Below, in pieces: positions 46,393 through 46,983 of a stretch of 64,000 nucleotides of DNA (position 1 is the first letter of the stretch; every line of letters begins with the position of its first letter). Location: assembly GCF_003018235.1 (NCBI RefSeq), contig NZ_CP027437.1. One strand, given 5' to 3'. The stretch comes from Escherichia coli. GTDB taxonomy: Bacteria; Pseudomonadota; Gammaproteobacteria; Enterobacterales; Enterobacteriaceae. The notes beneath the pieces are model-generated. The model was not told the origin of the DNA, made no database searches, and saw only the letters and a program-made list of their open reading frames with translations. The translations under genes were made by a program, and so were the position numbers.

Positions 46393-46983
46393 ATGAAAGT
46401 AGCAAAAGACCTGGTGGTCAGCCTGGCCTATCAGGTACGTACAGAAGACGGTGTGTTGGTTGATGAGTCTCCGGTGAGTGCGCCGCTGGACTACCTGCAT
46501 GGTCACGGTTCCCTGATCTCTGGCCTGGAAACGGCGCTGGAAGGTCACGAAGTTGGCGACAAATTTGATGTCGCTGTTGGCGCGAACGACGCTTACGGTC
46601 AGTACGACGAAAACCTGGTGCAACGCGTTCCTAAAGACGTATTTATGGGCGTTGATGAACTGCAGGTAGGTATGCGTTTCCTGGCTGAAACTGACCAGGG
46701 TCCGGTACCGGTTGAAATCACTGCGGTTGAAGACGATCACGTCGTGGTTGATGGTAACCACATGCTGGCCGGTCAGAATCTGAAATTCAACGTTGAAGTT
46801 GTGGCGATTCGCGAAGCGACTGAAGAAGAACTGGCTCATGGCCACGTTCACGGTGCGCACGATCATCACCACGATCACGACCACGACGGTTGCTGCGGTG
46901 GTCATGGCCACGATCACGGTCATGAACACGGTGGCGAAGGCTGCTGCGGCGGTAAAGGTAACGGCGGTTGCGGTTGCCACTAA
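46393..46983 (+). CDS. slyD: FKBP-type peptidyl-prolyl isomerase/metallochaperone SlyD
   Basis: 196-aa ORF MKVAKDLVVSLAYQVRTEDGVLVDESP... with His/Cys/Gly-rich C-terminal tail. Confidence 0.96.
   Translation: MKVAKDLVVSLAYQVRTEDGVLVDESPVSAPLDYLHGHGSLISGLETALEGHEVGDKFDVAVGANDAYGQYDENLVQRVPKDVFMGVDELQVGMRFLAETDQGPVPVEITAVEDDHVVVDGNHMLAGQNLKFNVEVVAIREATEEELAHGHVHGAHDHHHDHDHDGCCGGHGHDHGHEHGGEGCCGGKGNGGCGCH

Follow-up and report, generated by a model that had tools for sequence, protein, structure and literature searches.

The C-terminal 48 residues of the SlyD protein encoded in the window, a stretch of 64,000 nucleotides of an Escherichia coli contig (NZ_CP027437.1), very probably form the canonical E. 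coli SlyD metal-binding tail, which is intrinsically disordered (residues ~149-196) and is carried here on the reference (K-12) protein allele; we put the probability of this reading at about 95%. The reading frame as a whole encodes a peptidyl-prolyl isomerase of the FKBP type, into which a chaperone (IF) domain is inserted and which ends in the metal-binding tail. Mildly new are the near invariance of the tail across complete E. coli genomes and a rare 13-codon deletion allele that is bounded by direct repeats.

Identity and chromosomal context of slyD

From residue 1 to residue 196 the window protein matches PDB entry 2KFW, the full-length E. coli FKBP-type peptidyl-prolyl cis-trans isomerase slyD, with 100% identity, and it is also 100% identical to 2K8I (residues 1-165) and to chain D of 8G01 (residues 1-154) over the lengths present in those entries. 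We take 8G01 to be the complex of phiX174 lysis protein E, MraY, and SlyD; because it holds SlyD residues 1-154, the role of SlyD in phage lysis does not seem to need the tail. The NCBIfam SlyD equivalog NF008008 matches with 426.8 bits (cutoff 174 bits) at model positions 1-196 of 196. An FKBP-type PPIase domain is present at residues 4-78 (Pfam PF00254, FKBP_C, 35.6 bits versus a cutoff of 21.1 bits), a match left incomplete by the IF domain, which splits the FKBP fold. The exact window sequence bears the UniRef name SLYD_ECOLI and occurs on at least 1000 contigs in a large protein collection.

The context expected of SlyD is kefG-kefB-yheV-slyD with a convergent slyX, followed by fkpA-yheO. 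In the window, kefB-yheV-slyD-slyX-fkpA-yheO occur in the order and orientation of the annotated E. coli K-12 MG1655 chromosome (NC_000913.3, in which slyD is b3349; Table 1). The identification of the gene as slyD in the first-pass annotation is borne out by the 2KFW identity, the NF008008 score, and the K-12 gene order.

Between the convergent slyD and slyX genes lies a G+C-rich hairpin, placed between an A-run and a T-run, for which the + strand RNA has a folding energy of −21 kcal/mol (z = −4.75). This hairpin is probably a bidirectional intrinsic terminator common to slyD (+) and slyX (−). K-12 SlyD (b3349, SLYD_ECOLI) shares with the window the protein, the neighbours, their orientation, and the terminator hairpin, and differs only by 10 synonymous changes in slyD and a 1-nt indel within the hairpin. 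At the hairpin the window has one extra G (GCGGGGGAATCCCCGC versus GCGGGGAATCCCCGC in K-12), a variant that is also found in E. coli strain 7/2. A promoter scan of 46250..47300 returned no match to the sigma-70 consensus, which has no bearing either way on the slyD promoter. Scanned in full against Rfam at the gathering thresholds, the window yielded 0 matches, and no known structured RNA overlaps the slyD region.

Table 1. Features of the window referred to in the text, in order of position.
Feature	Coordinates	Strand	Description	Evidence
kefB	44283..46088			ORF list versus MG1655 annotation
yheV	46098..46298			Pfam DUF2387
slyD	46393..46983	+	196 codons and TAA stop	ORF list, PDB and K-12 identity, Pfam, NCBIfam
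Full tail	46837..46980	+	residues 149-196, 48-residue His/Cys/Gly/Asp-rich tail	translation, composition
HGHVH motif	46837..46851	+	His149, His151, His153; conserved single high-affinity Ni site	alignment, PMC7055735
Interval of the first-pass annotation	46861..46980	+	residues 157-196, last 40 codons (DHHHDHDHDG...GCGCH)	translation
Two 11-nt direct repeats, CCACGATCACG	46869-46879 and 46908-46918 (span 46869..46918)	+	39 nt start to start	
Hairpin	46999..47026	.	G+C-rich, between A-run and T-run	terminator scan (− strand match), fold
slyX	47033..47251	−	convergent with slyD	Pfam SlyX
fkpA	47472..48284			ORF list versus MG1655 annotation
yheO	48439..49173			ORF list versus MG1655 annotation
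gspO-like prepilin-peptidase gene	58680..59357	−		
istA-like transposase	59839..60861			rve integrase core and HTH
istB-like ATPase	60858..61640			IstB_IS21, 373 bits
gspL/gspK	61774..63935	−		

Extent and composition of the tail

Translation of 46837..46983 (+) yields HGHVHGAHDHHHDHDHDGCCGGHGHDHGHEHGGEGCCGGKGNGGCGCH and then a stop codon, in full agreement with the peptide given in the first-pass annotation. The peptide was therefore exact and is the slyD C-terminus, but the coordinates attached to it, 46861..46980, begin 24 nt too late and take in no more than the final 40 codons. The peptide starts at 46837, and its opening HGHVHGAH, containing His149, His151, and His153, lies outside the shorter interval. 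All three Cys pairs, CC 167-168, CC 184-185, and C193 with C195, lie within it.

The 48 residues comprise 15 His, 6 Cys, 16 Gly, 5 Asp, and 2 Glu. His and Cys together make up 21/48 positions. When every 48-residue segment is counted in the 83 open frames of the 64-kb window that reach 150 aa or more, the mean is 2.1 and the maximum, 21, is that of the tail itself. The composition of the tail is far from chance. Residues 149-196 have the attributes of a SlyD tail, being rich in His, Cys, Asp, and Glu with HGHXH at the start. The residues H149, G150, H151, V152, and H153 are invariant in an alignment of 15 members of the 90%-identity cluster of SlyD, made up of Escherichia, Salmonella, Pectobacterium, and Cronobacter proteins.

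Nickel binding and the role of the tail

The first-pass annotation had called the feature a known metal-binding tail, and it is documented as such in a review (PMC7055735). According to this review, the unstructured tail of E. coli SlyD, in which His, Cys, Asp, and Glu abound, can take up as many as 7 Ni(II) at heterogeneous sites of sub-micromolar affinity, and the isomerase (PPIase) activity is reversibly inhibited by Ni binding to SlyD (PMC7055735). SlyD is thought to store nickel and to supply the assembly of [NiFe]-hydrogenase. SlyD forms a complex with HypB and enhances its GTPase activity, the release of Ni by HypB is stimulated by the tail, and reviews regard the details of this interaction as unsettled (PMC7055735). 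PMC12284835 names SlyD as a source of Ni(II) for HypB.

Two engineered forms of the same parental protein can be set against the intact tail in the window. In SlyD155 the tail is gone; the protein binds one Ni via His149/151/153, yet does not activate hydrogenase in vivo (PMC7055735). SlyD is also a common contaminant in Ni/Co IMAC, and the LOBSTR strain eliminates it with mslyD, from which the 46 C-terminal residues are removed (PMC13397214). The effects on Ni delivery and Ni-column contamination that the first-pass annotation ascribes to the tail were demonstrated with such engineered truncations (PMC7055735, PMC13397214) rather than with natural strain alleles.

In the mechanism that we adopt from the literature, the 15 His, 6 Cys, and 7 Asp/Glu residues would form several overlapping Ni(II) sites that accommodate up to about 7 Ni per protein. 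SlyD, a cytoplasmic isomerase and chaperone, would act as a nickel store and as a source for the GTPase HypB, from which Ni would travel via HypA to the [NiFe]-hydrogenase large subunit. The tail would stimulate Ni release from HypB, bound metal would reversibly inhibit the isomerase, and the His cluster of the tail would make SlyD stick to Ni/Co affinity resins. Metal binding, hand-off to HypB, and IMAC behaviour are attributed to the window SlyD by analogy, from the K-12/BL21 literature on the identical protein.

It is conceivable, if rather unlikely, that the tail chiefly buffers divalent metals in general (Zn/Co/Cu) or serves the isomerase/chaperone as a metal-sensing switch, with nickel delivery secondary. 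The structure 8G01, with SlyD residues 1-154, shows that other roles of the protein do not need the tail. The reversible inhibition of the PPIase by Ni fits such a switch, as does the metal range of other SlyD proteins, that of Helicobacter pylori binding Zn and Ni and that of Thermus binding either (PMC7055735). SlyD also has many partners unrelated to hydrogenase, which include Fe-S biogenesis and the TCA cycle (PMC10653786) and Tat signal peptides (PMC11198818). Against this stands the hydrogenase phenotype, which needs the SlyD tail and for which isomerase activity is dispensable (PMC7055735). Neither the data nor the literature conflict with a buffering or switching role, which would be a different emphasis within known biology rather than another identity for the feature.

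Variation of the tail within E. coli and between genera

We searched complete E. coli genomes for the gene and, in a separate query made up of just its 147 nt, for the tail. slyD is found once per genome in 5,425/5,426 of them, and the tail is aligned over at least 80% of its length, with no large indel, in 5,405/5,424 matching genomes (99.6%). A sizeable indel in the tail is possible in at most 19 of the 5,424 (0.35%). One of the 5,426 genomes has no slyD match, in one complete genome the slyD match falls on a record described as a plasmid, and another has two places that match the tail. The best slyD match among complete E. coli genomes is 99.8%.

Rare variant alleles of E. coli SlyD were collected from a sample of the 2,589-member 90%-identity cluster. 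They include a 194-aa allele without the penultimate Gly-Cys (34 contigs), G181S (293 contigs), and H171Q, each of them much less frequent among contigs than the reference allele. A natural 183-aa allele (WP_023063096.1), also rare, is found on 174 contigs in the large collection and is encoded in NZ_LR536431.1 (1001..1552 of the retrieved region) and NZ_CM149872.1 (225..776 of the retrieved region). These two genomes belong to the 19 in which less than 80% of the tail is aligned; that set and the contig counts served to gauge how many genomes carry the deletion allele.

The body and the last 24 residues of the 183-aa protein are identical to those of the window SlyD. It lacks 13 tail residues, H160-G172 as the alignment places them (HDHDHDGCCGGHG), a loss that takes away 4 His and 2 Cys (one Cys pair) relative to the window tail. 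The 39 nt absent from this allele equal the spacing of the two CCACGATCACG repeats in the window. This agreement between deletion size and repeat spacing suggests that the deletion may have arisen between the repeats by replication slippage or short-homology deletion. It is doubtful that the tail DNA, with these in-frame repeats, is a mild slippage hotspot that recurrently makes length variants such as the 183-aa and 194-aa alleles. On that reading, their lower His/Cys content might have a measurable effect on how nickel is stored or hydrogenase matured, and the window would hold only the ancestral full-length allele.

Tails of SlyD proteins from other genera differ more. The Salmonella enterica protein (196 aa, same 90%-identity cluster) equals the window protein in length, has the same FKBP/IF body, and has kept the HGHVH motif and the three Cys pairs; it differs in the tail by HDHGEDG for HDHDHDG (one His fewer) and GGGGKGG for GGKGNGG, and in the body by A111E. 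In the 15-member alignment the Pectobacterium and Cronobacter tails carry indels, and most His/Cys positions of the tail are conserved across the aligned enterobacterial genera. The Thermus thermophilus protein (PDB 3CGM) has a homologous FKBP and IF fold (E-value 7.4e-36), and Thermus SlyD keeps an HGHXaaH-type site and has no extended His/Cys tail (PMC7055735). The fold is likewise homologous in H. pylori SlyD (PDB 2KR7, E-value 5.5e-21), which has a different tail that binds about 2.4 Ni (PMC7055735).

The claim that the length and composition of the tail vary between strains thus stands in so far as rare alleles exist in E. coli, and was overstated with respect to the 5,405/5,424 genomes without a large indel. 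Within E. coli it is only marginally true, and the variation, both in the literature (PMC7055735) and in our alignment, lies mainly between genera and species.

Silent differences from K-12

Alignment of the window SlyD with that of K-12 MG1655 gives 0 differences in 196 residues, and no amino-acid or length difference was found when residues 149-196 were searched for one. The DNA differs at 10 of 591 nt, all third-position and synonymous, with 6 of the 10 in the last 48 codons. That every change is silent, 6 of them inside the tail, indicates purifying selection on the protein sequence of the tail, and together with the 99.6% of complete genomes that have no large indel it points to strong purifying selection within E. 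coli. The dominant signal in the E. coli tail is protein conservation with silent drift of the DNA.

The first-pass annotation had raised the possibility of a strain-specific tail, and had itself held that a tail identical to the K-12 allele would leave nothing strain-specific; the alignment shows just such an identical protein. Variant alleles do exist in E. coli (the 183-aa allele without 13 residues that include one Cys pair, the 194-aa allele, G181S, and H171Q), and one of this kind, with an altered His/Cys count, might change Ni delivery or IMAC behaviour. That the window carries such an allele is extremely improbable, given its identity with K-12 at all 196 positions and the synonymous nature of all 10 DNA differences. 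We also rejected as a gene the 199-aa ORF on the opposite strand (46381..46980, −), which, although it runs uninterrupted for 199 codons and mirrors slyD codon for codon, has next to no chance of being the real gene with the His-rich peptide as its by-product and appears to be an artefact of codon usage: 10/10 of the differences from K-12 that are silent in slyD change an amino acid in its frame, as expected if only the + frame is selected, its product is a Val/Thr/Ala/Phe low-complexity string, and the + frame encodes a solved and named protein.

An insertion sequence elsewhere in the window

An IS21-family element (59839..61640) lies between the gspO-like prepilin-peptidase gene and gspL/gspK in a type II secretion operon (context 58680..63935). 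Alignment to the window is lost at about 59,753 in most complete E. coli genomes, and the IS is probably inserted in or near gspM. Over the 20 kb of window positions 40000..60000, identity to the best-matching complete genomes is no higher than about 99.4%; given this and the 99.8% for slyD, the strain of origin belongs to the E. coli group but is not one of the genomes in the collection of complete genomes.

Implications

The SlyD tail is a textbook feature that was already known, and has little discovery value in itself. In the light of the survey, the tail should not be regarded as commonly variable among E. coli strains. The strain from which the window comes should match K-12 or BL21 in SlyD-dependent nickel delivery and should give the usual Ni-NTA contaminant.
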